Shown: piece by piece, positions 37,576-57,886 of the stretch
Layout: every line of letters starts with the position of its first letter
Numbering within the stretch: position 1 is the first letter of the stretch
Origin: Trichormus sp. ATA11-4-KO1
GTDB taxonomy: Bacteria > Cyanobacteriota > Cyanobacteriia > Cyanobacteriales > Nostocaceae
Reading direction: 5' to 3'
Length of the DNA stretch: 64,000 nt
NCBI GenBank assembly: GCA_019358915.1
Contig: JAHHIM010000065.1
Location: 128,001-192,000, forward strand
Notes under the pieces: model-generated
What the model was told of the DNA's origin: nothing
The model's database searches: none
What the model saw: the letters and a program-made list of their open reading frames with translations, nothing else
Translations under genes and position numbers: made by a program

Positions 37576-37916
37576 ATTTGCTCTTAGCAATAAAATCCTA
37601 TTTTTGATAAATATTTGTATCTCTAGAAACCGGAGTTATCATCAACTACGGATGAGCGATACCTACACTAACGCCTAAGCAGATGATAGAAAAGTCGATT
37701 ATTTGATTACATATCTGCAAAAACATTGAATATTGACAATTTTTTCTCTAGAGGTATAAGTATATCTAGAAAAAATAGCAGATTTTATATCTACTTTGAG
37801 GAGTAAATATACAAGATTGATTTCTACCTTGGGATTTATGAATTCCTGACAAACAGTGCCTATAGTTGAGGTCGTAGGTGGTCATAAACCTATATACGTA
37901 AGTGAGGCTAACAATC

Positions 37917-38234
37917 ATGTCACATCAAATATTTGCATCTGACTTGTTTGTCACATTATCTGATGAACAACAAGAGCATCTAGCTGGCGGTGCCGACTTT
38001 GAACTGGCTGGTAGCAATTTTGCTAACAGAATCGCAAACTTACAGGGGACAAGCAACGCTGGCCCAGATGGCAGCACTGCCAACTCTACAGGTAATGTTA
38101 CAGCTGTTAACACTGCTGCACAAGACTTGTTGGGATTGGGTGCAGCAAGCGTTCCGACGGTTGACCCATTGGGTGGTGCACCAGTTCTCAACGGCGTCAG
38201 CAACGGCGGAAATGGCAATGGTAACAATGAATAA
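37917..38234 (+). CDS. Double-glycine precursor 1 (cyanobacterial tandem bacteriocin, CTB-like)
   Basis: Leader SDLFVTLSDEQQEHLAGG; N/G/S/T/A-rich core. Confidence 0.85.
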   Translation: MSHQIFASDLFVTLSDEQQEHLAGGADFELAGSNFANRIANLQGTSNAGPDGSTANSTGNVTAVNTAAQDLLGLGAASVPTVDPLGGAPVLNGVSNGGNGNGNNE

Positions 38235-38521
38235 AACTGTAACCCAGCCAAACTGTTGAACCATTCCTACAGTTGACCCGGAAAGCTGATCTTTCACATC
38301 AAAGCGTTTCACTAATCTAAGTAGGGAATGGTGTGTGGGGGTTACAAAAAGTTAACAGTATAAGACTGTACCTAAAATCTGCAATTGTTATCCCACATAA
38401 CTGACTATTGCCCTGGTCACCTTGGTTGATTTCTCTGGTCAGTGTTGCAAAATCTAGGGTTACGGTGGCGCTAAGCTAATTGAGCATTCCGGGTTTTTTC
38501 TTTGGCGTGGGAGGAAGGCAT

Positions 38522-38600
38522 GGATTCCAGAATTTTCTTGCCATCTTGATATTTCAAAACCTCATTGGCTGACTGAATATTAAGTCAGTTTCTGGAATCC
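38522..38600 (+). promoter_or_regulatory. Structured non-coding element upstream of precursor 2 (copy 1)
   Basis: GGATTCCAGA/TCTGGAATCC 10-bp stem enclosing a CTGACT..AGTCAG hairpin; homolog at 39413-39512. Confidence 0.55.
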
Positions 38601-38612
38601 TTTATTTGTATT

Positions 38613-38728
38613 AAGACTTACGCACAAGTTACGAAATAATAGTTCGCGTAGCGTGCGCGCAGCACATACCGCAGAGGCACAGAGAACACGGAGGAATGAG
38701 AGTTAGAGAAGTATTTTGCGTAAGTCCT
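38613..38728 (+). mobile_element. MITE-like element (GACTTACGCA...TGCGTAAGTC termini)
   Basis: 10-bp perfect terminal inverted repeat; closely similar copy on the minus strand at about 59698-59843. Confidence 0.75.
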
Positions 38729-38764
38729 ATGTATTTGAAAGTTACGTAAGTGAGGCTAACAATC

Positions 38765-39070
38765 ATGTTGTATCAAGCTATTGCATCACAGTTGTTTGTC
38801 GCGTTATCAGATGAGCAACAGGAGCATGTAGCTGGCGGTGTTGACTTTGAACTGGCTGGTAGCAATTTCGCTAACAGAATTGCCAGTTTACAGGGGTCAG
38901 TCAGTTCCGGACCAAATGGCAGCACTGCTAACTCCACAGGTAATGTTACAGCTGTTAACACTGCGGCACAAGACTTATTAGGATTGGGTGCAGCAAGTGT
39001 TCCTACAATTGATGCCTTAGGCGCTGCACCAGTTCTTAATGGTATAGGAACAGTTACCAATGGCGAATGA
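38765..39070 (+). CDS. Double-glycine precursor 2 (CTB-like), close paralog of precursor 1
   Basis: Leader SQLFVALSDEQQEHVAGG; core near-identical to precursor 1. Confidence 0.85.
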   Translation: MLYQAIASQLFVALSDEQQEHVAGGVDFELAGSNFANRIASLQGSVSSGPNGSTANSTGNVTAVNTAAQDLLGLGAASVPTIDALGAAPVLNGIGTVTNGE

Positions 39071-39077
39071 CGTATTT

Positions 39078-39350
39078 GATGCCAATTTCCGAAAAGAATG
39101 CTACAGATACGTAGGTTGGGTTAAACGTAGGATGAAGAGTGCTGAGTGAGGTCAAACTCCTAGAGAAATTTACCATCGCTAGCTTGAAGAATTGATGATT
39201 GCAGAGGTCATACCAATTTGAGAAGGGAATGCGAGAGATGCGTAGATTAGCGAGAACGGAGAAAACCCAACATATACAACATTTTGAAGTGTTGGGTTAA
39301 GAACCAAAACACAAATGAGATGTGTAGCGATGATTTTTCAAATTGGCATC
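39078..39350. mobile_element. Composite MITE-like remnant
   Basis: GATGCCAATTT ... AAATTGGCATC termini with a second internal left end (CATACCAATTT at about 39209). Confidence 0.5.
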
Positions 39351-39412
39351 ACTGTTTTAATTTCTGCCACTAGTGCTCAATTCATCTGGGTGTTCTAACT
39401 TTCTGCAAGGAC

Positions 39413-39512
39413 GGATTCCAGATTTTTCCTGCGTTCTTGCTATTTACACAACTCAATTATTTGGCTGAATGCCTCAGGAAAAACTGACTTTCTCAGTCAT
39501 TTACTGGAATCC
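39413..39512 (+). promoter_or_regulatory. Structured non-coding element upstream of precursor 3 (copy 2)
   Basis: GGATTCCAG/CTGGAATCC 9-bp stem enclosing a TGACT..AGTCA hairpin. Confidence 0.55.
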
Positions 39513-39575
39513 TTATATTTGACCTAAAAATCACGCCAAATCATATTGGGTTGATTGACAATGAGGCTAACAATC

Positions 39576-39848
39576 ATGTCACATCAAAAGATTACATCGG
39601 ATTGGTTTGTTGAGTTAGAATTATCTAATAAACAGCAACAGTTATTAGTTGGTGGTGTTAAGTATAAACTGAGCGATAACAATTTTGCTCAAGGAACGGC
39701 AGCAACAACAAAGACAAATAACAGTAGTCCCGAAGGTAACTCTTCCGACTCCAATACTCAGATTTCCGATGTAAATGCTGGTGCAAAAAGTTTTTTATCT
39801 ACTGATGCTACAGAATTTCCTTTACTGTCCAGTCTTCAATCACTATAG
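39576..39848 (+). CDS. Double-glycine precursor 3 (diverged CTB-like)
   Basis: Leader SDWFVELELSNKQQQLLVGG; S/T/N-rich core alignable to precursors 1 and 2. Confidence 0.8.
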   Translation: MSHQKITSDWFVELELSNKQQQLLVGGVKYKLSDNNFAQGTAATTKTNNSSPEGNSSDSNTQISDVNAGAKSFLSTDATEFPLLSSLQSL

Positions 39849-40470
39849 TTGCATCAATTGCACAATGCTGTAAGTAGTAAAACAGCATAATTGAGTAATG
39901 AATTTTACACTCAATAGTAAATTTTTCTTGCTCTTGGCGAAAGTTTAGAGATGAATTTTGATGGTATTTTTGCTATGTTCACGACAAAAACTCATGATGC
40001 TGCTCAACGCTACCAAAAAAGCTTTTTGTTTACAAATGAAAAGGGGGTAGAGGAGATAATTATAACTCGCTCATCGTAAGTGAGGTCTTTGAGAGAGTTT
40101 GAGCATTCTCCTCTATTGTTTCTACACGTTATCCACGTTAGATACATGAGAAAGGTTATTGCCGTACAAAGCGTACTTCTTTCTCTTTCCCCATCACTAA
40201 TTATAAGACATCATAAACCATGATGTTTGGTAACGTTAGCATCATATGTTACCGTTTGACTTTTTAATTTCATTCTGACCAATTGTTGATTACTTTTATT
40301 ATCAGCTTTATTCTCAGCCGATGAGGAAAATACTCCTGATTACGGGAAATTTCTGAGAGCTTGATTATAAGCGATCGCCTGATAAAAAAATCTGGGATTC
40401 ATTAATTTGTTGCTGCAACGTTACCTAAATTAACAGACAATTATCCACTTCAAATCCAAGGTGCATTACC

Positions 40471-41973
40471 GTGAACTCCTTTCCCCACCAAGACAATCAT
40501 TTTTGGCAGAGGTTTAATGAACCTACTCCAGAGGAACTCAATCTAGTTGATGCTAACGAATTTCTTCCCCGGATCAGTAAATGGACAAACATCGGCGCAG
40601 GAGTTCTGCTAACTATTTTTATGGCGGGGATTGGTCTGACATCTGTATTTAATTACAATGTCACAGTTAAAGTTCCTGCGAGTATCCGACCAAAAGGGGA
40701 ACTGCGCGTTGTTCAGTCTGCCGTTGTCGGCACCGTGCAAAAAATTGACGCGCGAGAAAATCAGATGGTGCAGCAAGGACAAGCAATTGCTTACGTTGAT
40801 GATTCTCGCCTACAGAATCAAAAAAGCCAACTAGAAAACAGTATTCAGCAAACTCAATTACAACTGGGTCAAATTGATGCTCAATTCAGTGAAATTGTTA
40901 CTCAGACTGCGGCTCAAAGAACCTTAATTAACCGGACAATTATCGCTGCACAAGCAGAATTAAGTGGTATTCAACGTAACTATGAAGACCAGCAAGTAAA
41001 AGCTACGGCTGAAATGACACAAGCAGAATTAGCCTTGAACTTAGCTAGAGTACAACGCGATCGCTTACAACGAAATAATTTATTAACTGCAACTGTACAA
41101 GAAGCTGAAGTGGCTTTAAATTTAGCCAAAGCGCAACGCGATCGCTTACAGTCAGTGATGGCATCAGGCGCAATTTCTCGCAATCTGTTTGAAGAAAAGG
41201 AACAGGCGGTAAAATCAGCCCAAGCCAAGCTAGAACAAGCAAAGGCTAATGCTAAAGACCTGATGGAAGAAAAAGAACAAGCTCTCCAGGTTGCCCAAAT
41301 CAACCTAGACAAGGCTAAAACTAGTATCAATCCCAGTAATGCTGCTGTCACCGTGGCATCTGAAAGAATTAAGCAGGAACAAGCCAAAGGTGAGGCTACT
41401 TTAGCTGCTTTAAATAAAGAACAAGAAACTTTACTTCAGCAGCGTATAGAACTGCAAAAGCAACTTTCTCAGACTCGTAAAGAACTACAACAAGTAGAAA
41501 CTGACTTAAATCAAAGTGTGATTCGAGCGCCAATTACAGGTACACTGCTGCAATTGAATCTGCGTAATCCGGGACAAGTAGTGCAACCAACGCAGCCTAT
41601 TGCTCAGATTGCTCCCCTCGATGCGCCAATGCTGATCAAAGCTTTTGTCCAAGCTCAAGATATTGACAAGGTAAAACCTGGTCAAAAAGTGCAGATGCAG
41701 GTTTCTGCTTGCCCCTATCCAGATTACGGTACTCTCCACGGGACAGTGAAAACCGTTGCCCCAGATGCCCTACCAGTGGGAGATAAAAGTACTGGTAATT
41801 CTCAGAAAGTTGCCTATGAAGCAACTATAGAGCCAAAAACCGTATATGTGGGTAGAGGCGATCGCCAATGTCAACTCCAACCCGGTATGGAAGGTAGAGC
41901 TGATATTATTTCCCGTCAAGAAACAGTACTTAATTTCATTCTTCGCAAAGCCAGATTAATCACAGATTTATGA
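40471..41973 (+). CDS. HlyD family periplasmic adaptor of type I secretion
   Basis: N-terminal TM, long coiled coil, IRAPITG, PYPDYGTLHG, LQPGMEGRADI. Confidence 0.93.
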   Translation: MNSFPHQDNHFWQRFNEPTPEELNLVDANEFLPRISKWTNIGAGVLLTIFMAGIGLTSVFNYNVTVKVPASIRPKGELRVVQSAVVGTVQKIDARENQMVQQGQAIAYVDDSRLQNQKSQLENSIQQTQLQLGQIDAQFSEIVTQTAAQRTLINRTIIAAQAELSGIQRNYEDQQVKATAEMTQAELALNLARVQRDRLQRNNLLTATVQEAEVALNLAKAQRDRLQSVMASGAISRNLFEEKEQAVKSAQAKLEQAKANAKDLMEEKEQALQVAQINLDKAKTSINPSNAAVTVASERIKQEQAKGEATLAALNKEQETLLQQRIELQKQLSQTRKELQQVETDLNQSVIRAPITGTLLQLNLRNPGQVVQPTQPIAQIAPLDAPMLIKAFVQAQDIDKVKPGQKVQMQVSACPYPDYGTLHGTVKTVAPDALPVGDKSTGNSQKVAYEATIEPKTVYVGRGDRQCQLQPGMEGRADIISRQETVLNFILRKARLITDL

Positions 41974-42131
41974 AAAGTGTTGAGTTGAAAGTGCTGAGTG
42001 CTGAGTAAACATTTTTCGGGTCACTTTACAAAGTTTAGGAATTTAATCTCCTGTATTTCCAGAAGTTTTGTCTCAAGGTCTCAATCCCTGTGCCAAAACT
42101 CAATTACGAATTACGAATTACAAATTAACTT

Positions 42132-44300
42132 ATGTTTGGTTTAGTTAAACTTCAAAACAACTATCAATGCGTTTCACAGTTGAGCGAGGAAGACTGTGGA
42201 GCAGCTTGTCTAGCTTCAATTAGCAAACATTATGGGCGGTTTTTAAGCATCAATCGCAGCCGAGAAGCAGTAGGCACTGGACAGCTAGGAACAACGCTGC
42301 TGGGTTTAAAGCGTGGAGCTGAGAATCTGGGTTTTAATGCTAGGGCGGTTAAAGCCTCGCCAGCCATCATAGACAGAATCAAAGAAGTGCAACTGCCAGC
42401 TATTATCCATTGGCGAGGCTATCACTGGGTTGTTTTATATAATCAACGAGGCAAAAAGTATGTAATTGCTGACCCGGCTGTAGGTATCCGTTATGTCACA
42501 AAAGAAGAGTTAACCGCCGCTTGGAACGGGGTGATGCTCTTACTAGAACCAGATCCAGAGCGCTTTTTTGCACAGCCCCAAGATAAACCAATCGGTGGCT
42601 TAGGACGCTTTATTAAACGGATCTTGCCTTATCGTGGTCTGCTAACTCAGGTTTTAATGCTCAACATTGTCCTAGGTGTACTCGCTTTGGGTTCTCCCGT
42701 CCTCATCCAAATACTCACAGATGATGTTCTCATCCGTGGTGATACTCAGTTACTTACTGTTGTGGTATCAGCAGTTGTAGTCATGACCGTATTTAGTAGC
42801 ACTCTGCAAGTATTGCAATCAACTATGATTGCTCACTTCGGTCAACGGCTGCAATTGGGTCTAGTTTTGGAGTTTGGGCGCAAGATGCTCCAGCTACCTT
42901 TGAATTACTACGAAGCCCGCCGTAGTGGTGAAATCACTAGCCGATTGCGAGATATCAATGACATTAATCAGTTGGTGTCGCAAATTGTAATTCTTTTACC
43001 TAGCCAGTTTTTCATTGCAGTGATTTCTTTTTGCTTAATGTTGTTTTATAGCTGGCAATTGACACTGGCAGTCATCGTCATCGGTGGTTTAATGACTTTA
43101 TCCACCTTGCCTTTTTTACCGATCCTGCAACAAAAAACCCGTAGTCTTTTGGTTTTGGGAGCAGAAAATCAAGGTGTATTAGTAGAAACCTTTAAGGGCG
43201 CACAAGTAATAAAAACTACAAATGCTGCTCCTCAATTCTGGGAAGAATTTCAAAGTCGTTTTGGTCGTCTGGCCAATCTGACGTTCAGCACTGTGCAGAT
43301 CGGCATTATTAACGGTACCATAGCAAGACTTTTTTCCACCATTGGCGGTGTGGCTTTACTGGGGCTAGGGAGTATTTTAGTGATTCGGGGACAATTAAGT
43401 ATCGGGCAAATGCTCGCTTTTAATGCATTACAGGTGAATGTTTTAAATTTAATTAATTCCTTAGTTGGCTTAGTCGATGACTATTATCGCTCACAAACAG
43501 CAATCTCTCGCCTCTTAGAAGTCATTGATGCTACGCCGGAGGTAGTTGGAGGTAGTCAAAAGCCAGTTGCTCAAATCTCTGGCGATGCAGATATCCATTG
43601 TTCCCACATTACATTTCACCATCCTGGCAGAATTGACTTGTTAGAAGATTTTTCGATTAAGCTTCCTGGTGGACAAGCGATCGCTTTAATTGGTAAATCT
43701 GGCTGTGGTAAAAGTACTTTAGCAAAACTGATTGCAGGTTTATACCAACCAACTTCAGGCAATATCCGCATTGGCTTGTACAATCTCGATGACCTAGCCC
43801 TGGATTGTTTACGACAACAAGTGGTGTATGTACCCCAGGAACCTCATTTTTGGAGTCGCTCGATTTTAGAAAATTTCCGTTTAGGAACACCCTACATCTC
43901 CTTTGAGGAAATTGTCAAAGCTTGCCATATTGCAGATGCAGATAGCTTTATCAGTCAACTGCCAAATAAATACCAAACTGTGTTAGGTGAATTTGGAGCT
44001 AATCTCTCTGGTGGACAAAGACAACGATTAGCGATCGCCAGAGGAATTCTTACTAATCCACCTGTACTAATTTTAGATGAAGCAACGGCAGGACTAGACC
44101 CAGTTAGTGAAGCTAGCGTGTTAGATCAAATATTGGCATACCGCAAAGGCAAAACGACAATCCTCATTACCCATCGTCCCAGTGTTGTCAATCGTGCTGA
44201 TTGGATTGTGATGTTAGAAAAAGGTCAAGTGCAACTACAAGGCACTCCAGATACTTTTCTCTCGCTAAAAGGAGAGCATTTAAAGTTTTTAACGTTATGA
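42132..44300 (+). CDS. Peptidase C39-containing ABC exporter (PCAT)
   Basis: Q..EEDCGAAC, HWVV, ADP catalytic residues; TM domain; GKSGCGKST, LSGGQ, ILDEAT. Confidence 0.95.
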   Translation: MFGLVKLQNNYQCVSQLSEEDCGAACLASISKHYGRFLSINRSREAVGTGQLGTTLLGLKRGAENLGFNARAVKASPAIIDRIKEVQLPAIIHWRGYHWVVLYNQRGKKYVIADPAVGIRYVTKEELTAAWNGVMLLLEPDPERFFAQPQDKPIGGLGRFIKRILPYRGLLTQVLMLNIVLGVLALGSPVLIQILTDDVLIRGDTQLLTVVVSAVVVMTVFSSTLQVLQSTMIAHFGQRLQLGLVLEFGRKMLQLPLNYYEARRSGEITSRLRDINDINQLVSQIVILLPSQFFIAVISFCLMLFYSWQLTLAVIVIGGLMTLSTLPFLPILQQKTRSLLVLGAENQGVLVETFKGAQVIKTTNAAPQFWEEFQSRFGRLANLTFSTVQIGIINGTIARLFSTIGGVALLGLGSILVIRGQLSIGQMLAFNALQVNVLNLINSLVGLVDDYYRSQTAISRLLEVIDATPEVVGGSQKPVAQISGDADIHCSHITFHHPGRIDLLEDFSIKLPGGQAIALIGKSGCGKSTLAKLIAGLYQPTSGNIRIGLYNLDDLALDCLRQQVVYVPQEPHFWSRSILENFRLGTPYISFEEIVKACHIADADSFISQLPNKYQTVLGEFGANLSGGQRQRLAIARGILTNPPVLILDEATAGLDPVSEASVLDQILAYRKGKTTILITHRPSVVNRADWIVMLEKGQVQLQGTPDTFLSLKGEHLKFLTL

Positions 44301-44329
44301 AATATTACGCGGTGTGAGCAAGTAAAATC

Positions 44330-44647
44330 ATGTCGGAAAATAACACATCCCATAACTCAAAATTTTTCCAGTATCTTTCTGAAGAAGAACAAGAAAGCCT
44401 AGTTGGTGGACAAAATTTTAATCCCCTAGGTGACAGTAAATTTTTCTTCCAAAAAACTGACATTCAAACAGAAGCAGAAAATAAATTAAATCTTGCCGAT
44501 GCTGAATCTGGTTCACAAATCACCAAATATAATTTATCACAGGTTACTATGGCCTCTTCCATCACCTTTGGGTTACCAAACTTTAATTCTAGTAGTAATA
44601 GTCTAAATAATTTAATAAGTAAAATTTTAAGTGGATTGTTTTCCTGA
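44330..44647 (+). CDS. Double-glycine precursor 4
   Basis: Leader SKFFQYLSEEEQESLVGG. Confidence 0.8.
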   Translation: MSENNTSHNSKFFQYLSEEEQESLVGGQNFNPLGDSKFFFQKTDIQTEAENKLNLADAESGSQITKYNLSQVTMASSITFGLPNFNSSSNSLNNLISKILSGLFS

Positions 44648-44700
44648 AGTGCCATTTGATTAATTAGTAATAGTTATAGAGGCATTAACATTTATGTTTC

Positions 44701-44832
44701 TATAGCAATCTTATTTAATTTCTAGACAGCGATAGGCTGAGACTCCCGACTTCTTGTAGACACCTTATACGTGTCTACAAGAAGATATAATTCGGGAAAT
44801 TTTTATTCATAAATCCATTTAGACTTGCTATA
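44701..44832. mobile_element. MITE-like element
   Basis: TATAGCAA ... TTGCTATA termini; internal CTTCTTGTAGACAC/GTGTCTACAAGAAG palindrome. Confidence 0.55.
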
Positions 44833-45034
44833 TAAATATATCCGTATAATATTTAAAAACAACAAATTAAATCTTTGGCAAAAAGTCAGGTTTTAATTAA
44901 AATTACATGAGTCTAAAGAGGTAGATTTATTTAATGAATTTACAACCTTAGAATAATTTAAATCACAGGAGAATAATTAATAATAAAAACATAGGTGATT
45001 ACACACCTAAGTAAGTAAGTGAGGTTAATAATTT

Positions 45035-45286
45035 ATGTCAACCCAAATCATCACATCTGATTTGCTTGAAGAGTTATCCGCAGAACAACAACAGCTTCTA
45101 GCCGGCGGACAAAGAGGATTTGAAGACCAGCAATTCGACGATCAGCAATTTGAAGACCAGCAATTTGACGATCAGCAATTTGATGGAGAAGGTAGAGAAG
45201 ATAGACAAGATTTTACCCCTTCCAGAGGTCGTAGTGTTAAACGTGTTCCCATCCGCTTGACTGGTGTCCTTGAAGTTATTAAATAA
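45035..45286 (+). CDS. Double-glycine precursor 5 with acidic F(E/D)DQQ pentapeptide repeats
   Basis: Leader SDLLEELSAEQQQLLAGG; 30-bp tandem DNA repeat at 45119-45178. Confidence 0.82.
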   Translation: MSTQIITSDLLEELSAEQQQLLAGGQRGFEDQQFDDQQFEDQQFDDQQFDGEGREDRQDFTPSRGRSVKRVPIRLTGVLEVIK

Positions 45287-45614
45287 GGACTGAGTAGTTC
45301 CATAGTCTAAACTTTGCAATTAGTGATCCGAGAAGAAAACTTATATAACTCACTCAACTTAAATTAAGTTTTGAGAGAGTTTTGGTAGTAAAGTATGGTC
45401 TCTTATGACTCAAAAGCCAAAGAACAACTGCCAAATACAGCACCAAATTTTTCTCGACTATCACTCTAATTGCAAATAATTTTGACTATTTAGCAAATAC
45501 AGTTTTTACGGTAAAAAGTAAAGCCTTAGCCGTAATTTTACACCCATATAAGAAGTGAAGTTTTTTAGTATGGGTGTTACCTAACATTTATCTACGAGAT
45601 TGAGGCAATCAACC

Positions 45615-45857
45615 ATGTCAAAATCAATCATTCAATCTGAATTGTTTGTGGATTTATCCGCAGAAGAACAACAAATTCTTGCTGGTGGTCAAATATTATT
45701 AGGCGGACAAACTAGACCTGATATTACTGTCACTGGTATTCTCACTGATTCTAGCGGTCAACGTATTCCTGTGCGAATTTTAGGTTTCATTGCTAGACCT
45801 AGTGCTGGTGGAGGTTTTGGTGGTGCGGGTGGCGCACCTATTGGCGGTTTCCAATAG
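45615..45857 (+). CDS. Double-glycine precursor 6 with Gly-rich tail
   Basis: Leader SELFVDLSAEEQQILAGG. Confidence 0.82.
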   Translation: MSKSIIQSELFVDLSAEEQQILAGGQILLGGQTRPDITVTGILTDSSGQRIPVRILGFIARPSAGGGFGGAGGAPIGGFQ

Positions 45858-46309
45858 TGTAGCTAAAGAATACTCTTAAGATGTTTAGACAGATTCTACT
45901 AAACATTAAAGCCATCAAAAAATTACCCTAACCTTTTCTGTAAAGAAGGGGGAAATTCAAAGCCTCTCTCCTCATAGAAGAAGAGAGGTTTATTTTTATA
46001 TCTTGTGACTTTTTAAACATCTCTTCTAACTTGTTCAATATAAATCAAGTTTATATAATTTGAGAAGCGATCGCCAAATATAACAGGTTTAGATAGATTG
46101 CTGTTAGATATATTTGTATATTTTTCACACTTGAATTAAAGCTAAATTTAGCATATATCAAAAGGTGGAATAACTGCTAGTTTATTTATCACTGTGGGAT
46201 CATTTAATCACCAATAAACATGTTTAGAAATAAAAGTATTAGAAGTAAACACCTGTATTCCTTGGGAAATAGGCGTGTACTTCTAATTGATGAAGTTGAG
46301 GAAAAAATT

Positions 46310-46504
46310 ATGTTAGTTCAAGACATCCAATCCGATTTGCTTGTGGATTTATCTACAGAGGAACAGCAGCTTGTATCTGGGGGCTTCGGCTACGGTGGCT
46401 ACGGTGGCTACGGTGGCTATGGTCGGGGTTTTAGTCCTGGCTTCGGCTACGGTGGCTATGGTCGTGGCTTCGGTCGTGGCTACGGCTTTGGTGGCTTTTT
46501 CTAA
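46310..46504 (+). CDS. Double-glycine precursor 7 with Gly/Tyr/Phe/Arg-rich core
   Basis: Leader SDLLVDLSTEEQQLVSGG; core FGYGGYGGYGGYGRGFSPGFGYGGYGRGFGRGYGFGGFF. Confidence 0.82.
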   Translation: MLVQDIQSDLLVDLSTEEQQLVSGGFGYGGYGGYGGYGRGFSPGFGYGGYGRGFGRGYGFGGFF

Positions 46505-46843: not shown

Positions 46844-46974
46844 TAAGTAGGTGGGTGGGAAAATTTATCGCTAGGATAAGGCAGAAGGCAGAAGGCAGGA
46901 GGCAGAAGGGAAGAGGGTTTTAAGCTGATTCATATTTCTTTACATAGTTGATTTTATTTGTGCCTACCTACTTA
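46844..46974. mobile_element. MITE-like element with GGCAGAA heptamer repeats
   Basis: TAAGTAGGTGGG ... CCTACCTACTTA termini; AGGCAGA tandem array inside. Confidence 0.65.
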
Positions 46975-49900
46975 CTTCGACTCAGTGCCTACTAGTTTTT
47001 CCCCTTTGAGCATCCGCACTGCGGCTTCAAGTAAAGCTTCTTCTAAATATGGCTTGGTAAAGTAGCCACTAGCACCGAGTTGAATTGCCATTTGTCTGTG
47101 TTTATCTGCGCCCCGTGAGGTGAGCATCGCAATGGGTAGATGATTGAGGCTAGAATCTTTCTGGATGCGAGAGAGCAATTCTAGACCATCACAACGCGGC
47201 ATTTCAATGTCACAAAATACGATATCGCAAGGTAGACCGGAGCGGAGTTTGTCCCAAGCTTCCTGACCGTCACGCGCCTGTTCAACGCGATAACCTGCTT
47301 TATTAAACGTCAGCGACAGTAACTCCCTAACTGTAATTGAGTCATCGACAATCAGCACTGTCGGATCAATCTTCTCCGCAGAAGTGTCTGGCAGGTTGGG
47401 AATATCTTGTTGCTGCCAAGATGTACTACCACTGTGTTTAGAAATCCGTCCTTGGAAGATGTCAATAATCTCCAGTACATCAGCAATTGGCATAATGCGA
47501 CCATCACCAAGGACTGTAGCACCAGCGACACCGATGGGTTTGGGTGCTGGGCTTTCAAATTGCTTAATGACAATTTCTTGTTCACTCAGCACTTGGTCAA
47601 TTTGTAGGGCAATCAAGGTATTTCCCGATCGCACCACCACAACTGACACCATATCATCATCTCGGTTGCCGCCATAAACATTACCGCGACTCAGTTGACG
47701 ATTAAAGGTTAAGAGTTCTTTCAAAGGTCGGAAAGGGAGTACTGTATCGCGCCAAGAAATATATGATTGTCCGTCGGCATTATGCTGGATATTTTTGACT
47801 GGTATATCAAGAGTATCTTCCACACCGTCCATCGGGAAGGCAATCCGCGCTTTATCGGAGACACAACAAAGAGCTTTGCAAATACTCAAGGTTAATGGCA
47901 GACGAATAGTAAAGGTCGTTCCTTTGCCGATGGTAGAGTCTGTATTAACTATGCCGCGAATTTCGCTAATTTCAGAACGCACCACATCCATTCCCACACC
48001 ACGGCCAGAAATCTCATCGGCTTTGTCTTTGATACTAAAACCCGGTTGGAATAGCAGGTCGTAAACTTCCATGCGCGAAATGGTTTTTGCTTGCTCTGCG
48101 GTAATCATTCCCATTTGCACCGCTTTGACCTTAACCCGTTCAGAATCGATACCAGCACCGTCATCACCTACGGAAATCACTGTTTGGTTACCTTGGTGAA
48201 ACGCACGGATGGTAATGTATCCCACAGGTTGCTTACCGCCTGCTTGCCTGATCTCTGGGGTTTCAATGCCATGAGCGATCGCATTATTCAACATATGGGT
48301 TAATGGGTCGGTGAGATGATCTAAAATCATCTTGTCAATTAAGGTGTCTCCGCCTTCAATCACCAACTCTACTTGTTTGCCATACTTGATGGCATTGTCC
48401 CGCACTCCTCGCCGCAAGCGATCAATGGCTTGGGAAAAAGGCACCATTCTAGCTCGTGTAAGTCCCTCTTGTAGCTGAGTGGTGACTTGACGAAATTGCC
48501 TCGCTACTCTTTCGGTTTCTTCAGTTACAAAGTCAATGTCACTCGCTGACTCACGCACCCGGACAATAAATTCAATCATTTCTTGGGATAGGGTGTGGAA
48601 AGGAGTAAAGCGATCCATTTCTAATTCACTAAAACCCCTGTCTGTATCTGCTTCTTCAGCGTGAAAGCTAATTTCTGTAGTTTCTTTGGTTTCTTTAGTT
48701 TTGCGACTGGCTAGAAGTGAAGCTTCCAAGAGCGATCGCTCATATAATTCTTGCATCCTTGCGCCCACATCCGAGAGCTGTTGCACCTGAATTAGCAAGT
48801 TATCTAATGATTGTCGCAGCCGTTCATGATCCTGTTCTAAAGTATTGCGGTTTACCACCAACTCCCCAACTAAATTACTCATATCGTCCAGCTGCTTAAC
48901 TGGCACTTTCATTGTTTCTTCAAATCTGGCAGTACGACGAGTAGAAGAACGGGGGATTTTGCTGGTGTTTGGTTTTATTGGCGCTGAGTGGGAGATAGTT
49001 TGATCTGCTTCTGCTAGCAGTTTCTCCAAATCGCTAAATTCATCATCTACATCTGCTGATGCAATAATTTGACTGACAGTTTGGTTAGTATTTGGTGTAA
49101 TTTGTTGTGTGTAGGATGCCTGCTCATCATCGTTGTCTGTACCCAACAAAGCTTCCAAAGCGGCAAAATCTTCTTCTGGTATGGAACTAGCTGCTAATTC
49201 TGCATCTAGTAATGCTTCTAATTCAGCAAATTCATCTTGGATATATGTATCGGTATTATTTTGTTCAGTAGCTGCTGCGTCTGTAGTTTCTGCGGTTACT
49301 GATACTGATATTACTTCTTCAGGTGGGATTAAATTAGCAGCTTCGCTCTCAGCTACTAATGCAGTTTCAGATGTTAAATATTCTGCTTCTAGATTGAGTG
49401 CTAGTTGCTCGGTTTCTATTGCTGATGAATCAGTATCTAAATCCGGTTTTTCGGTTTCCTCTATCGTTATTTCTGTAATATCATTAATTGTGGTGTCGTT
49501 GGCTACTGTATTTAATAAATCTGCTTCTGAATTGAGTGCTTTCTGCTCAACTTCTATTACTAATGAATCAGGTTCTGCAATTTCTTCTATTGTTCTTTCT
49601 GTTGAATTAGCATTAACGCTAATATCTAACAATTCTAATTCGCTTTGGGACTCTTGTAAGTTTAAATCTTCTGTAAAACTTATATCTGAAAAGAATGCTT
49701 CTTCATCCTCAACCAGATTTTCTACACTTTCTAATTGGATATAAGTTGAGTTATCTGTAGAGGCTGTGTCATTAAATAGGATTTGTGGATTCTCATCCAG
49801 AGAATCAAATAAATCAAGTTCCAAATCTGCCAATGTTTGGGTAAATACGGGCTGATTAGTAAATTCGGGTGTGAAATCTAGAGCTTCTGGTTCTTGGGAA

Positions 49901-52164
49901 AAACCACCAATTTCCTGGAGAGATAGGTCTTCATCATTAACTGTCAGAGATCCTGATGTAATTTCTGCTAAGTCTGCAAATAAATCATTTTCATTAGCAT
50001 TATCTGATGAGACTATTAAATCTGGCTGATGGAAAGTCAGGTCAAAATCTTCTAGATCAGAACTTGTTGGAGGGGAAGGTATAGACTCCTGAGAGTTACC
50101 AAAAATCTCACCAGAAGCCGCAGCCGCAAACAAACTTTCTTCTAAGGCTTTTGCTACATCCTGCTCAAGTATAGAAGCACCTTGGTGTTGTTGCTCTGTG
50201 GCAATTTCCTGATTCCAAAAGTCGTTAACATCATCTTCTGTTTGAAAAGAGTCTATGGTGATTGCAGGTGATTCATCAAATAAATTACTGATTTCTAACT
50301 CATCAATAGACAGTATTGTATTTTCTGCTAAATCAGCAAACAAACCGTCTAAATTTAATATTTCAGGCTGAATGACGGTAGGCTGTGATTCTATGTGGTC
50401 ATCAAGGGAAATCTCCTCCAAGAGATTTGCATTATCAGTTTCTAAGAATAAGTCATCAGTACTACTTTCTTGCTTGATGGGTGCTTCAATATTGGCAATA
50501 GTTTCAGTTTCTGGTTGAGCTACTCCGCCTATGGATAGTAATTCATTTTCATCCAGTGCTAGTGCTAATAAATCGCTGAATAAATCCTTACGGTCAGTCT
50601 CCTGTAATTCGCTAGATATTTCTGTAATTTCCTGTTCATTTTCCACAAAATTTGTCGCGGATTTTTGTTGATTTTGTAGAACTGGATTTTCTCTTTCTAG
50701 GAAAGTGTCGCCAAATAATAGACTTAAGTCTTCTGTTGTAGCTAGGCTGATTTGCAAATCATCATTGCCTGTATTTTCATCAAAGGACAGAAAATCAGTT
50801 AAATCGCTATCACCATCTTCAATATCGCTGTCACTGATATCTATTCCCAATTCATCGACGGCGGTAATATCTAGAATTTCCTCTTCTTGCCAGGTTTCAT
50901 CTAGTTCTGGAGTTTCACCTTCAAATAAATCAGCAAGAGTATTTAACTCAGCTAATCCTACCTCTGGCCCGTTTTGGTCAAGATTTATATTGGTAATATG
51001 TATGTCTTCTTCACTGTTAAAGAAGGAAGAAGTAACGGCAATTTCCCTATCAATATTTTCTGCTGCTGCCTGATCTAGCTGAATTTCTGCGGTTAGTTCA
51101 GTTAAACTAGTTACACTATCTGTAGGCTGCAACGTGGTCAGAGGTAATACCTCATCTAGTGCGGGTTCTGTCACAGTAGGCTGGTCATCAAACAAGTCTT
51201 GAGCTTGTAACAAGTCAAGTTCTTGCAAGCTTAAGAGTGCTGCTAACTGCTGATTAATTGCAATCTCAGTTTCTCTACCTTGGAGAACTAATTCTTGAGC
51301 TTGTTTGATTTCGGTAATGACGATTTTGGCTAGGGTAAGATAAGTATTTTCCGGACTAGCGATCGCATTGGCGGCTGCTTGACATAAACTACACCAATTA
51401 GGCAAATTCCACGTTTGCCCCAGCCTAACTAACTGCTGACAACATTGTTGAAGATTTTGTCGAGATTCAGGTGTGGTTTTTTGTTTGAATAGTTGTAACA
51501 TTTCCCGCAGTGCTTGTAGCACCTGGGTTTGAAATTCACCCCAATGATCATGTGCTTGGGCAGTGATTGGCGATCGCTCTGACTGGGATACTACAGATAA
51601 TGGCACTTCTGTAGATGTCTGATCGCTATCTGCTTCCAGATCGGGAATATCTCGCCGCAGGAACAACTCAGTGAGTGTACTGACACTATCTGGAGGAATT
51701 GGTTGTAGTTCTGTTGTATCGCTGACTACACCATTAATACTTTGTTGTACCAGTATTTCTAAATGCTCATTTAGCCATTTAAACACTGGCTCAGTTTCAG
51801 ACATCAGAGTATTAGCAGCTTCTTCCGACAGACCAAACGGCCCACTCAAATGTTCTAATAGCACCTTGAGGGTATCAGATACACCGAGAAATAAAGATTC
51901 TAACTTTTGGTCAACCTGAACCGGATGTTCTTTGAGAACTTTAAAACAATCTTCCAGACGGTGGGAGGTGTGCTGGATGCTACTCAATCCCAGCATGGCT
52001 GCTCCCCCTTTGATCGAGTGAGCCGCCCGGAAAACTTCGTTGACCATTTCCGGGTCATTCAGGGTTCCTTGGAGATTCAGTAACCCTTGCTCAATCGTAT
52101 TCAAATGGTCTCTGGCTTCTTCAATGAAGTAACCTAAAATTCGCTGTTGTTGTTCCGGCAGCAT
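46972..52164 (-). CDS. hmpE: Hybrid CheA-like histidine kinase with receiver (HmpE/PilL)
   Basis: Hpt FRAAHSIKGGA, long acidic linker, NAIAHG, DDGAG, SGRGVGMDVV, CheW domain, C-terminal REC. Confidence 0.92.
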   Translation of the reverse strand: MLPEQQQRILGYFIEEARDHLNTIEQGLLNLQGTLNDPEMVNEVFRAAHSIKGGAAMLGLSSIQHTSHRLEDCFKVLKEHPVQVDQKLESLFLGVSDTLKVLLEHLSGPFGLSEEAANTLMSETEPVFKWLNEHLEILVQQSINGVVSDTTELQPIPPDSVSTLTELFLRRDIPDLEADSDQTSTEVPLSVVSQSERSPITAQAHDHWGEFQTQVLQALREMLQLFKQKTTPESRQNLQQCCQQLVRLGQTWNLPNWCSLCQAAANAIASPENTYLTLAKIVITEIKQAQELVLQGRETEIAINQQLAALLSLQELDLLQAQDLFDDQPTVTEPALDEVLPLTTLQPTDSVTSLTELTAEIQLDQAAAENIDREIAVTSSFFNSEEDIHITNINLDQNGPEVGLAELNTLADLFEGETPELDETWQEEEILDITAVDELGIDISDSDIEDGDSDLTDFLSFDENTGNDDLQISLATTEDLSLLFGDTFLERENPVLQNQQKSATNFVENEQEITEISSELQETDRKDLFSDLLALALDENELLSIGGVAQPETETIANIEAPIKQESSTDDLFLETDNANLLEEISLDDHIESQPTVIQPEILNLDGLFADLAENTILSIDELEISNLFDESPAITIDSFQTEDDVNDFWNQEIATEQQHQGASILEQDVAKALEESLFAAAASGEIFGNSQESIPSPPTSSDLEDFDLTFHQPDLIVSSDNANENDLFADLAEITSGSLTVNDEDLSLQEIGGFSQEPEALDFTPEFTNQPVFTQTLADLELDLFDSLDENPQILFNDTASTDNSTYIQLESVENLVEDEEAFFSDISFTEDLNLQESQSELELLDISVNANSTERTIEEIAEPDSLVIEVEQKALNSEADLLNTVANDTTINDITEITIEETEKPDLDTDSSAIETEQLALNLEAEYLTSETALVAESEAANLIPPEEVISVSVTAETTDAAATEQNNTDTYIQDEFAELEALLDAELAASSIPEEDFAALEALLGTDNDDEQASYTQQITPNTNQTVSQIIASADVDDEFSDLEKLLAEADQTISHSAPIKPNTSKIPRSSTRRTARFEETMKVPVKQLDDMSNLVGELVVNRNTLEQDHERLRQSLDNLLIQVQQLSDVGARMQELYERSLLEASLLASRKTKETKETTEISFHAEEADTDRGFSELEMDRFTPFHTLSQEMIEFIVRVRESASDIDFVTEETERVARQFRQVTTQLQEGLTRARMVPFSQAIDRLRRGVRDNAIKYGKQVELVIEGGDTLIDKMILDHLTDPLTHMLNNAIAHGIETPEIRQAGGKQPVGYITIRAFHQGNQTVISVGDDGAGIDSERVKVKAVQMGMITAEQAKTISRMEVYDLLFQPGFSIKDKADEISGRGVGMDVVRSEISEIRGIVNTDSTIGKGTTFTIRLPLTLSICKALCCVSDKARIAFPMDGVEDTLDIPVKNIQHNADGQSYISWRDTVLPFRPLKELLTFNRQLSRGNVYGGNRDDDMVSVVVVRSGNTLIALQIDQVLSEQEIVIKQFESPAPKPIGVAGATVLGDGRIMPIADVLEIIDIFQGRISKHSGSTSWQQQDIPNLPDTSAEKIDPTVLIVDDSITVRELLSLTFNKAGYRVEQARDGQEAWDKLRSGLPCDIVFCDIEMPRCDGLELLSRIQKDSSLNHLPIAMLTSRGADKHRQMAIQLGASGYFTKPYLEEALLEAAVRMLKGEKLVGTESK

Positions 52165-52240
52165 AATAAAAGTTCTGAGTGCTGAGTGCTTAGTGCTGAG
52201 TAATCAACCGTCATTTACCAATGATTAATGACTAAGTTAA

Positions 52241-55165
52241 CTATCGAGATTCGAGAGTTTCCACGCGGAAACGCTCAACAGAGGAAATCAAGTCGCGGGA
52301 AACACCTACTAAGAGTTGTAAAGCACCAGAAACTCGCTGGGCTTCTTGGGAGGTTTCTTGGGCTGTGAGTTCCACCGATTGCATAACGTGAGCGACGGCG
52401 CGGGAAGTTTCCGTCTGTTCTACTGTGTCACTGGTAATTGAGCGCACCAGAGTATCAATGCGATTCGCTACTTGAATGATATTTTCGAGCGATCGCTTGG
52501 CTTCTTCAGCCAGTTTTGTGCCTTTAATTACCTGTTGTGTGCCTTCTTCCATTGCGGTCATGACTGAGCCTGTTTCGCTTTGGATTTGCATGACAATCTG
52601 TTCAATTTCCTTCAAGGATTTGGCAGATTTATCTGCTAGCTGCCGGACTTCATCTGCCACAATGGCAAACCCACGCCCGGCTTCTCCAGCCCGTGCAGCC
52701 TCAATACTGGCGTTGAGTGCTAGCAAGTTGGTGCGGGAGGCAATCTGAGAAATTAACGCCACAATTTTAGAAATCTCTTGGGAAGATTCCGCTAGCCGCT
52801 TCACCTTACGGGTAGTTTCGGCTACAGTTTCGCGAATTTCTAAAATCCCTGCCACAGTATTTTCCACTGCTTCCCCACCTTTGAGGGCGATCGCACTGGC
52901 ATCACGGGCAACGGTTTCGGCTTCCCTTGCTGCTTCTGCTACCCGTTGAATTGAGTCAGTCATCACCTGCACGGAATTTAAGGTGACTCCTAACTCTTCT
53001 GCTTGGCGCAAAGCATCGCTAGATAATGCTCTGGCAAATGTTTCGGAGTTGGTTGCACCTCTTGTTACCTCCTTGGCTGCGACTTTTACCTGTTGAACAA
53101 TATCCCGCAAATTTTGGATTGTCAGGTTAAAGGCATCGGCAACGGCTCCGAGTACGTCGGCTGTCACCTCAGCTTGAACTGTTAAATCCCCTCTGGCCGC
53201 ACCTTCCACGTCATCCAACAGGCGAATTACTTGACGTTGGAGATTTTCTTTGGCTTCTTCTTGTTCATCGGCTTTGCGCTGGGCTTCATGTGTAGTCGTA
53301 AAAATTACACGGGCCATTTCATTAAAGCCTGTAGCTAAATGCCCTAATTCATCTTCGGAATACACTGTAGCTTGCACATTGAGATTACCTTGGCGGACTG
53401 CATCAAACTGAGCTTGCAAATCCTTAGTGGTGCGGCGAATTTGCTTGAGTGTGAGATTGCCCATCAAAGCGGCGGTGCTAAAACCCGCAAGACCCGCCGC
53501 TAGTGACATCGCCCAGCCTGTGTTCCGCACTGATTCTCGTTGTTCGGGTGGAGAAAAACTGGTGGTGGCAAAGCTGACTGTGGCTACAACTAGCGCGGAA
53601 AAAACACCCACAGTACCAGCAACGAACCAGGGTTTCACATCTAAGGGGGCATTTTCTAAAGGTGCTAACCAGCCTTGCTCAATGCTGACGTTGGGTTCTA
53701 GCTTAGAGACATCTGTTTGGGTAAAATTAGGAACTGCTTCTTGAGCGCCAGTATGTGAACCGGTAATGGAAAACAGTTCATCATCGCGATTCCTGTGGAG
53801 CGCTTCGCTATCGCTAGTTTCGTTACTTGGGTTAATCTCAACGGCTTTACTTTGTGGATTACTACCGGTTTCTAGTGAACTAGAAAGCATAGCCACGTCA
53901 CTGAAGCTAGAATCTGTTTCTGCTAGATCAAATCCAGGAATATTCCCTAAATCATCAAACTCATCAAAGTCATCTAAAAACTCTATATTACTTTTAGAAC
54001 TTTCAGCTTTTAAGAGATTATTTGTATCTTCTTCAGAGCCAAAGGCAGATTCAAATGCTTCGAAATCAAAAGCTTCATCGCCGTCAAAGTTTTGTGTCTC
54101 TACCTCTATTTCAGTGTTAATCTGTTGCTCTTTCCGGGAATAATTCCCATTCACAGATGGGGATATTTCTGGGAAATTTTCCGTAATTTCTATTTTCTCT
54201 AACCAATTACTCGGTTCACTAGGAAGTAGATTATCTTGACTGCTGTTTCTCAAGTTATTGGTTGTTGCTAAACCATTTTTGAGATTTTCTTTATCTATGA
54301 ATAAAGTTTCATCTTCTGGGCTATTTCTTGGCAATTCAAGATTTGCCCCACTTGGTTTTTGATGATTTTCTTCCTGCAAAAGCTCAGGCTCAGGTTCCCA
54401 GATATTGCTTGTTGATAAATTAACTTCTGTAAAAGTTGTATCAACACTATGAGCGGCACTTTCGTTATCTGATAAGTCGCTGCTAATTTCTGGCTCGTTA
54501 AAACTTGCTTCGGCAATATCTTCTTGCCAGAAAACAGGTAATTCTAATTCAACTGGCTCATTTTCACTATGGTCATCAGACTTTTGCTCGTTTTGATTCA
54601 CGGCAAAAGGATCTTCACTAAAAGTTGGGGTAGAATCTGGTGTTTGATTAAATGAAGTACTGTCTGTGATAGTTCCAAATGGATTACTTAGGGATAGTTC
54701 TTCTACATCCACAGATTCCCCAGAAGCATCAAAGGAATTTAAATCAAAGCTGCTGCTATCTAAATTTTCTAACACCTCCAAACCTTCTAAGTCTGGTGTA
54801 CCAGATTCCAGAGCATCATTCATCTCTGTAAAATTTATTGGCTCTTGCTGATGATTTTCTTCAGCCGCCACCTTTTCCTCTAATGGCTGTTGGTATTGAT
54901 TGATGTTTTCTAACCCATTATTGGCAAAACCAAGTATTTCTGGATCATCAGACAACTGCAAAACTTTCTGATATTCTTTTTGGGCAATATCATACTGCTG
55001 CAACACGTAGTAGATGTGACCCCTTAACAAATGGCAGTTGGGGTCATCTGGTACATTTTTTACTACTTCGTCCACTAAAGTGGCGGCAACTTCATAGTTT
55101 TGTTGCGCGTAGGCTGTACAAGCCTGCTTATATGTTTCCAAGTAATCGTTTATACTTGCTGCCAT
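52241..55165 (-). CDS. hmpD: Methyl-accepting chemotaxis protein with N-terminal TPR (HmpD/PilJ)
   Basis: TPR start, acidic linker, 2 [37 protein letters not shown]. Confidence 0.92.
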
Positions 55166-55181
55166 TTGCTCCCTCCCAATT

Positions 55182-55712
55182 TCATCCTGCCCACCTTGCA
55201 CTCCGCAAAATTGCCATTTGATCGAGCAGCCTTAAACACTGATTATTTTTAGCACCTAATAACCACTCACCACGCAAAAAGGGAGCCATAGTATCTGGTA
55301 GATTGGTTGGTGGCATGAGATGCTGTACATCCAGCCAATCCATACCACCAATTTCCTCTACTGCTAAGCCCACTATTGTGTCTTGCTCTTCAATAGCAAT
55401 CACCGGAATTTCTGCTCGATCCGTGTTTAACGCGGTTGCTTCGCCAAGAAATTGACCCAAATCAGCTACCCAAATTACTCGACCTCGTAAATTTAGAGTA
55501 CCCAAAAGTAAGGGAGAAGCATTAGGAATCGGGGTGATTCTATCAGGACTTAATTCCATGACTTCTCGAATACCAGTTGCGGGTAGTGCAAACTCCTGAT
55601 GCGAGGGAATGTAAAACCGCAAATGTAACTCACCTTCAGGACTTTCTACTTGTAATTCAGGGCGAAAGTGATCTTGACCACTACCACTTAAAAAGTCCGG
55701 TTTGCTGACCAT
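55182..55712 (-). CDS. hmpC: CheW-like adaptor (HmpC/PilI)
   Basis: ITPIPN...[16 protein letters not shown]. Confidence 0.92.
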
Positions 55713-55725
55713 ATTGTTTTCATCC

Positions 55726-56091
55726 TTATCCTCGCAGCAGTTGTTTGACTGTTCCCACCAACTCGGTTGGTTGAAACGGTTTGGCTATGTAAGCGTCCGC
55801 ACCTTGCTTCATTCCCCAGTAGCGGTCAAATTCTTCGCCCTTGGAAGAACACATCACTACGGGGACATTTTGAGTTTTTGGATCGGACTTTAACCGACGA
55901 CAGACTTCATAGCCGTTCATCCGGGGCATGACAATATCCAACACCACTAAATCGGGAGGGGCAGTTTGAATTGCCTCTAGTGCTTCTACTCCATCACTGG
56001 CATGGGTGACTATTAAGCCACTTGCTTTCAGGAGGTCTGTAATCATCTCCCGTTGTGCGATACTGTCTTCCACAATCAGAACTGTACTCAT
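55726..56091 (-). CDS. hmpB: CheY-like response regulator (HmpB/PilH)
   Basis: VED, LDIVMPRMNGYEVCR, WGMKQGADAYIAKPF. Confidence 0.92.
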   Translation of the reverse strand: MSTVLIVEDSIAQREMITDLLKASGLIVTHASDGVEALEAIQTAPPDLVVLDIVMPRMNGYEVCRRLKSDPKTQNVPVVMCSSKGEEFDRYWGMKQGADAYIAKPFQPTELVGTVKQLLRG

Positions 56092-56263
56092 AAATACCTA
56101 TCTACCTCCTGATGTAGACGTTCCTTTTTGGAACATTCCCTGATACCCCATAAAGATTTAGTGTATAAATTAGTTTTATGTTTTCACTAATGTACTAGAT
56201 ATTAACGTTGTACTGGAGTTAGCTGATTCTGTGATAACATCTTTTACTCGATATTTTATGGAA

Positions 56264-57487: not shown

Positions 57488-57886
57488 TTAGCTTAAAAGC
57501 TCTCCTGATCATCCCGTTTACATTCTCTGTTAATTTTGCTCATCAATTTTTTATGTTTTTAGCAGATGAATAACGTATGAGTACTCAAAATATTATTTCC
57601 TTTACAACTATTCCAGATCAGGGAATACATTTAGCTATAAACTGTAAATTTTCGTAATAGATTTTGATAAAGCTAGTGATCACACCGAAGTCATCATCAC
57701 TGTCATCAGGACAAAATATAAGGGCGTATCCAAATCGTATCTATAAATATCAAGACGTTTATTCCACGTCTATAAATAGTTTTGTCTGTCTTTTTTCCTC
57801 ACTTTAGGTGAAATAAGACCAGTTAACAGAATTATCTCAGGTATATTCCCCAGCCCGGACATTAAGTACACAAGAGGACGAACGGT

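Follow-up and report, generated by a model that had tools for sequence, protein, structure and literature searches.

A Candidate Small RNA and Predicted β-Hairpin Peptides at a Double-Glycine Precursor Cluster of Trichormus sp. ATA11-4-KO1

Multi-subunit secreted amyloids such as Pseudomonas Fap and Escherichia coli curli are made of repeat-built subunits and use different export routes; the C39 protein of Fap is, to our knowledge, not an ATP-binding cassette (ABC) exporter. A closer precedent for the locus described here is the biofilm system of Synechococcus elongatus, which needs four double-glycine (GG) proteins and the peptidase PteB (PMC4997328); EbfG1 to EbfG3 form amyloid, and EbfG4 is located at the cell surface (bioRxiv 10.1101/2022.07.13.498973). 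The Anabaena genes asr5139-alr5148 have been proposed, from predictions, as an ebfG counterpart (PMC12267927), and Wang et al. (2011; PMC3140520) filed this cluster and alr1200-asr1204 as group III "bacteriocin." Genes of the cyanobacterial tandem bacteriocin family (CTB; NF038167/PF28158) are likewise annotated as bacteriocins, and no functional test was found in the literature searched that names the family. Here, we report a cluster of seven GG-leader precursor genes (p1 to p7) with hlyD and a C39 exporter in Trichormus sp. ATA11-4-KO1 (Nostocaceae) and, within it, a conserved predicted noncoding RNA (positions 40031 to 40193, minus strand) that a first-pass annotation of this DNA had overlooked. 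That annotation had suggested a secreted matrix and pointed to Fap, which also uses a C39 peptidase; the idea is plausible and already published, and ebfG/pteB is the closer model. What is new, as far as our searches reach, is the hairpin model of the subunits and an RNA addressed to the precursor family.

The window, to which all unprefixed coordinates refer, is a 64,000-nucleotide (nt) stretch of contig JAHHIM010000065.1 (assembly GCA_019358915.1, positions 128,001 to 192,000, forward strand). A scan of the 5.97-Mb genome for short open reading frames (ORFs) with the GG-leader pattern gave nine matches, seven of them in the window cluster and one each on contigs C11 and C7, and this concentration is therefore not due to chance. 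The first-pass annotation correctly placed all seven around hlyD and the C39 exporter, which is intact; p3 departs from the stated leader in having two extra residues. On the plus strand, p1 (37917-38234), p2 (38765-39070; core 79% identical to that of its paralogue p1), and p3 (39576-39848) are followed by the HlyD-family adaptor (40471-41973; PF13437) and a short-type peptidase-containing ABC transporter (PCAT; 42132-44300; PF03412, PF00664, and PF00005), in which C22, H98, D114, Walker A/B, and LSGGQ are all present. Then come p4 (44330-44647), p5 (45035-45286; an acidic repeat core, then a hydrophobic/basic C-terminal segment), p6 (45615-45857; a conserved 25-residue core flanked by Gly-rich ends), and p7 (46310-46504; a low-complexity Gly/Tyr/Phe/Arg core). 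As had been suggested, p1 to p3 resemble CTB, passing the curated NF038167 cut-off of 32 with 83.8, 82.9, and 45.8 bits, p3 being divergent; p4 to p7 fall below it (19.9 to 27.3 bits, the match confined to the leader region). Contrary to that annotation's understanding, the family is not defined by its leader alone, because the 72 positions of the model include the core. Residues N, S, T, G, and A, said to enrich cores 1 to 4, make up 60 to 64% of the p1 to p3 cores (at least the 99.8th percentile) and only 42% of the p4 core (89th percentile). The cores of p1 to p5 are net acidic.

The likeness to ebfG1-4/pteB/hlyD lies in a GG precursor array beside a short C39 exporter and HlyD and in core composition; in ebfG-like operons taken from genomes G086 and G430, whose motifs agree with the published ones, the cores have the same extreme share of N/S/T/G/A as p1 to p3 (56 to 64%), and the G086 exporter is 56% identical to the window exporter. 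EbfG-like cores are neutral to basic, whereas CTB cores are acidic; the window has extra acidic and Gly-rich substrates, unlike the ebfG system, and, among the genomes searched, the sRNA (small RNA) turned up in Nostocaceae and in a single further genome. With group III, the window shares a short C39 exporter lacking an N-terminal cNMP domain, HlyD, GG precursors, and the absence of LanM. The alr1200-asr1204 cluster of PCC 7120 has the gene order, core types (by eye), and downstream reductase neighbor of the window; by eye, Asr5139 to Asr5142 are CTB-like, Alr5143 is p4-like, and asr1202 to asr1204 correspond to p5 and p7 by type as well as by order. Unlike the PCC 7120 clusters, the window unites CTB genes, p4, and asr1202-type genes at one exporter. 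By analogy, the window system may work like EbfG, which is not to say that it is EbfG.

Of 585 exporter loci, the best 80 were compared, 59 of them close (exporter at least 81% identical); a leader hidden Markov model (HMM) requiring an ATG start, which missed GTG-started genes, called 289 precursors in 81 loci, window included. The exporter and HlyD were the only near-universal genes among the 81. The close loci usually run from CTB genes through hlyD and the exporter to p4-type, acidic, p6-type, Cys-rich (or other), and Gly-rich genes, the last (compare p7) being a frequent final precursor; this layout is conserved across Nostocaceae. The p6 family has 23 members in 22/81 loci. NF038167 matches occur in 36/46 sampled family genomes and in few outside (45/401 in a phylum sample).

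AlphaFold2, given an 83-sequence alignment, predicted the p1 core as one long β-hairpin of two 21-residue strands (core residues 3 to 23 and 28 to 48; predicted local distance difference test [pLDDT] about 90) with a P-x-G turn and a disordered tail. The p4 core, predicted as a hairpin of matching length (6 to 27 and 33 to 53) plus a C-terminal helix, stands for a second hairpin family (25/81 loci), whose homology to CTB is not clear (13/1000 shuffles fitted the CTB profile as well; hhalign, 2%). On average, neither face of the p1 and p4 hairpins is hydrophobic (−0.16 to −0.59), both being rich in small or polar residues; the hairpin tips are small and polar, and face analysis found no alternating hydrophobic membrane belt on either. 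The CTB cores and p4 are thus predicted to be single long β-hairpins without a membrane belt, a feature absent, like the RNA control, from the CTB model description. By itself, such a hairpin would hardly be stable, and it therefore probably oligomerizes. The ratio of nonsynonymous to synonymous substitution rates (dN/dS), pooled over 4 to 11 non-independent pairs per gene, was 0.12 to 0.21 for the cores of p1 (0.12), p2, p4 (0.16), and p6 (0.21), below their leaders (0.24 to 0.50), and 0.33 to 0.48 for p3, p5, and p7; p1, p2, and p4 are under purifying selection. Purifying selection and modeled hairpin faces without a lipid-facing belt favor a fiber over a pore, and, as the first-pass annotation had argued from composition, mostly acidic cores with predicted hairpins fit self-assembly better than a cationic pore.

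The predicted sRNA (40031..40193, minus strand; about 160 nt, three stem-loops, ends inferred) occupies the spacer upstream of hlyD, which had a blastn match in 54/82 loci. Forty-five aligned minus-strand copies share a TATAAT −10 box (40200..40205 in the window; last five bases invariant in 45/45, the first conserved in at least 90%), are G-rich at the start and C/U-rich at the end, and carry three stem-loops. The seed loop (40076-40085, minus strand), CCUCACUUAC, is exact in 44/44 aligned copies and costs 1.15 kcal/mol to open, against a median of 7.2. Compensatory changes were seen in 11/27 predicted pairs, with 96.5% of cells pairing versus 49 to 63% in slid controls, and the window copy had a fold z of −4.67; the sRNA shuffle control may be inflated by related sequences. 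The sRNA model found one copy in this genome, with matches in 47/121 family genomes and 8/150 order genomes (7 of those 8 in the family). Rfam gave no credible match (mir-67, E = 0.085, is chance). With an apparent promoter of its own, a conserved structure, and an accessible seed complementary to target ribosome-binding sites (RBSs), it has the sequence characters expected of an RBS-masking trans sRNA, and it is very probably real. PCC 7120 transcriptome sequencing (RNA-seq) detected unnamed reads that run leftward in the gap separating alr1199 from alr1200, by position a candidate counterpart (PMC3141674). Beyond this signal, no description of the sRNA was found in the literature searched; passages of PMC3140520 and PMC12267927 make no mention of an RNA, the supplements of PMC4734099 do not contain the loop sequence, and the main text of PMC12873609, whose supplements may list the structure, does not mention HlyD or bacteriocin. 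Shortened forms occur at loci L020, L024, L035, and L039, the last three having lost the 5′ stems.

The complement of the loop sits 10 to 20 nt before the start codons of p1 (37898..37907; −19 to −10), p2 (38746..38755), p5 (45015..45024; −20 to −11), all on the plus strand, and the orphan precursor on contig C7, spanning the GAGG Shine-Dalgarno core; p3 lacks a full site. These four are the top four of all ORF leaders genome-wide, with a duplex energy of about −20 kcal/mol. The 10-mer itself occurs 12 times in the genome, as expected by chance, and it is thus the placement of the site, rather than its number, that carries the signal. Matches of at least 10 nt were found for 94/225 precursors in RNA-bearing loci, 1/35 in close loci without detected RNA (one such locus being incomplete), 0/29 in distant loci, and 1/860 other genes; p4-type genes almost never carry a site (0/19). 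Of 19 site-plus-ATG matches in five further genomes (RNA confirmed in four), 13 were GG precursors, two of them unlinked, and another was a pseudogene remnant; with the pattern reversed, there were 2 matches. Six genomes, at four separate places on the exporter tree, have the cluster without the RNA (150 candidates scored in each), and their sites are mostly decayed, with GAGG usually kept. Intact sites numbered 0/11 at L026/L027 versus 8/28 in sister loci, 1/5 at L061 versus 17/52, 0/5 at L037 versus 3/17, and 0/11 at L093/L096 versus 0/12, a sister count that missed three GTG-started genes with intact sites; the L093 site differs by one substitution from intact sites in L087, L091, and L097. 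Cluster sites thus decay, with exceptions, in lineages without the sRNA, and it is likely that the sRNA loop pairs with precursor RBSs.

Leader cleavage and type I export are known for these exporter families, and trans-acting RBS-masking sRNAs and type I antitoxin RNAs use a single-stranded seed that can pair with the ribosome-binding region in mRNAs for small proteins. The window sRNA resembles them, yet it is encoded in the cluster and matches a whole paralogous precursor family, unlinked orphans included. In the mechanism we propose, the exporter most likely clips the leaders and passes the peptides out unmodified by way of HlyD and a presumed outer-membrane channel, and the hairpin subunits would stack, by analogy with EbfG, into a surface or biofilm fiber, with p1 to p3 perhaps as bulk subunits, p4 as surface anchor or nucleator, and p5 to p7 as accessories. 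The sRNA would block translation of tagged precursors by pairing with their RBSs (repression being assumed here rather than stabilization), setting a threshold such that aggregation-prone peptides would not be made until transcription is strongly induced. Consistent with a biofilm role, asr1202, the syntenic gene of PCC 7120, is reported to rise 11-fold in biofilm (PMC13156569). As a whole, an EbfG-like matrix system of exporter-secreted hairpin peptides under family-wide sRNA repression has, in our judgment, about an even chance of being correct. The stronger version, in which heterocyst-forming cyanobacteria build a secreted multi-subunit fiber from an unrecognized single-hairpin subunit misnamed CTB, with the sRNA as master switch of matrix production reading a 10-nt RBS tag common to all precursors of the family, whether linked or not, is put forward more tentatively.

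Several observations weigh against this proposal. EbfG and CTB cores have no detectable sequence homology (HMM versus shuffles; hhalign, <1%): seven of eight EbfG-like cores were equaled against CTB by 367 to 677 of 1000 shuffles and one by 20, with 548 and 660 for the EbfG4-like cores. In a midpoint-rooted tree of 82 exporters without outgroup, PteB-like exporters fell outside a group that includes LanM-linked exporters, and this tree thus gives no sign of a special kinship. The matches nearest in fold were hairpins of barrels and rings that are oligomeric (stems of pore toxins, FliF/LP rings, and phage collars); none was significant (Z ≤ 3.3, E ≥ 0.13; root mean square deviation 3 to 6 Å over about 50 residues), so that a barrel is possible, and a sequence search of solved structures reached E = 0.74 at best. 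The p3 core is under weaker constraint than its leader (dN/dS, 0.38 versus 0.21), CTB genes have been lost in many lineages that keep exporter and RNA, and the PCC 7120 CTB cluster (asr5139, alr/asr514x) is not among the differentially expressed biofilm genes listed (PMC13156569). For the RNA, only 3/7 window precursors have a site, orphan precursors keep theirs in two RNA-less genomes, and the loop is invariant, so that no compensatory change with targets is visible. The excess of G-U over A-C (73 versus 19), which favors the minus strand, leans on the predicted minus-strand structure, and the last stem is akin to the ordinary 3′ hairpins that precursor genes have on the plus strand. A homology of EbfG and CTB suggested by eye, from a resemblance of their turns and from an AQ[ND] motif, was dropped after failing the shuffle control. 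An Atlas feature search, leader included, placed an EbfG4-like precursor nearest a CTB cluster (0.90), which is a lead only.

The peptides might instead be unmodified multi-component bacteriocins whose hairpins form a β-barrel pore in competitors, the RNA acting as an antitoxin-like limit on self-harm. A GG leader with a PCAT is the microcin route, the family name says as much, and the weak fold matches are largely to pore-forming toxin stems. Four CTB genes of one Nodularia cluster are reported to rise under phosphorus starvation, and another cluster does not (PMC9846622). A pore is unlikely, however, given polar, small hairpin tips, the missing lipid-facing belt, net acidic p1 to p5 cores, and selection that is purifying, not diversifying; the first-pass annotation saw no immunity gene, and none of the 19 intergenic candidates of the cluster is a conserved small hydrophobic or immunity ORF, although an immunity gene may lie at a distance. 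An RNA, moreover, cannot shield a cell against peptide coming from outside. Export of the peptides as diffusible signals or developmental regulators has a precedent in HetC, reportedly a PCAT acting in differentiation, and would suit the p5- to p7-position cores, which differ widely between lineages, and asr1202, which also responds to several stresses (PMC13156569). It sits poorly with cores of 39 to 80 residues, predicted to be structured hairpins and present in up to six tandem paralogues, and no receptor or two-component gene is conserved beside the cluster; we regard it as less likely than a pore.

Least likely is conversion of the cores by a trans-acting enzyme into RiPPs (peptides made by ribosomes and modified after translation), in spite of Ser/Thr-rich cores and LanM genes beside more distant exporters (L055 to L057; 65 to 67% exporter identity). 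The first-pass annotation saw no modifying enzyme, and no enzyme gene lies within the 59 close clusters, where ORFs of at least 110 amino acids (aa) were limited to three opposite-strand ones overlapping precursors and one missed precursor. A search of the genome (99.89% complete) limited to LanC-like, YcaO, and TIGR04261 genes, and thus bearing on the trans-acting modifier which that annotation had raised, found none, the LanC-like search being positive in two control genomes; both PqqD genes lie within apparent lasso-peptide clusters (by eye). The cores were said to lack Cys, which is true of the window and not of its relatives, where 37/253 cores in 21/59 close loci have at least two. As for the RNA alone, it could be a 3′ hairpin of the plus strand or a cis element, with no pairing in trans and with the motif in common being just an inherited RBS: several precursors are followed on the plus strand by the same stem, both strands fold about equally (−49.9 versus −47.1), and orphan sites persist without RNA. 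This is improbable, since the loop that never varies, the two additional stems with covariation, and the −10 box on the minus strand are exclusive to this copy. Shortened forms at L024, L035, and L039 retain the promoter region and seed stem, and sites within clusters that have lost the RNA decay, as the L026/L027 counts and the L093 substitution illustrate.

One such 3′ hairpin, kin to the last stem of the sRNA with a different loop, follows p5 (45336..45384, plus strand), and the sRNA may have arisen from precursor 3′ hairpins. Pairing of the sRNA with these hairpins was rejected, as a match was seen in only 10/204 and 7/10 were mismatched at the variable base. A reading of secondary model matches as paralogous RNAs whose loops co-varied was also rejected; they are 3′ hairpins, and their loops are unrelated. 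A conserved promoter/5′ leader precedes p1 (37780..37916, plus strand; −10-like box 37861-37866), with a similar stretch in 55/82 loci, retained even beside a pseudogenized first precursor. The first CTB gene is a 13- to 41-codon remnant, with promoter/leader, RNA, and exporter persisting, at L028, L029, L031, L032, L060, L062, L065, L069, L070, L075, L078, L089, L112, and L113. A generic promoter/terminator scan gave chance level only. An inverted motif, GGATTCC...GGAATCC, is repeated at 38522-38600 and 39413-39512, upstream of p2 and p3, and precedes 13/284 precursors, chiefly CTB. The RNA-less loci L037, L093, and L096 have one inverted precursor gene each within their clusters.

Elsewhere in the genome, a second cluster on contig C11 (L017:5476-9788) runs CTB, p4-like, exporter, hlyD, an order as in ebfG-pteB-hlyD; its short exporter and HlyD have two precursors of their own, neither with an sRNA site. 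The C7 orphan (L018:6410-6619) has an Arg/Cys start, Gly-Tyr-Asp repeats, and the best sRNA site, with similar orphans at L138 and L139. The earlier description of one exporter serving seven substrates therefore fits the seven precursors here and is not exclusive. The apparent lasso-peptide clusters (L142 and L143, contigs C9 and C36) combine PqqD with protease-like and cyclase-like genes, by eye. At L028 to L032, L060, L093, and others, downstream cores are rich in repeats of Cys-Cys and Cys-x-Cys or of His-Gly, and no modifier lies close by; such cores might be cross-linked by disulfides or bind metal. A Mastigocoleus cluster encodes a 641-aa Ser/Asn-rich GG-leader protein without a Pfam match (L044:6226-8160), possibly a large matrix substrate. 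Downstream, the window cluster is adjoined by a chemotaxis-like locus (46972-59647; hybrid CheA, MCP, and hmpF), an association seen in 2/81 loci only.

How bloom- and mat-forming Nostocaceae aggregate and form sheaths and biofilms is poorly understood in terms of proteins. The hairpin subunit model and the conserved regulator make a role of CTB and matrix formation directly testable in a standard laboratory strain. If the proposal is true, an sRNA addressing a paralogous precursor family by a shared untranslated-region tag would be an unusual form of control for peptide-export clusters, and it would offer a means of turning biofilm on or off in cyanobacterial cultures.

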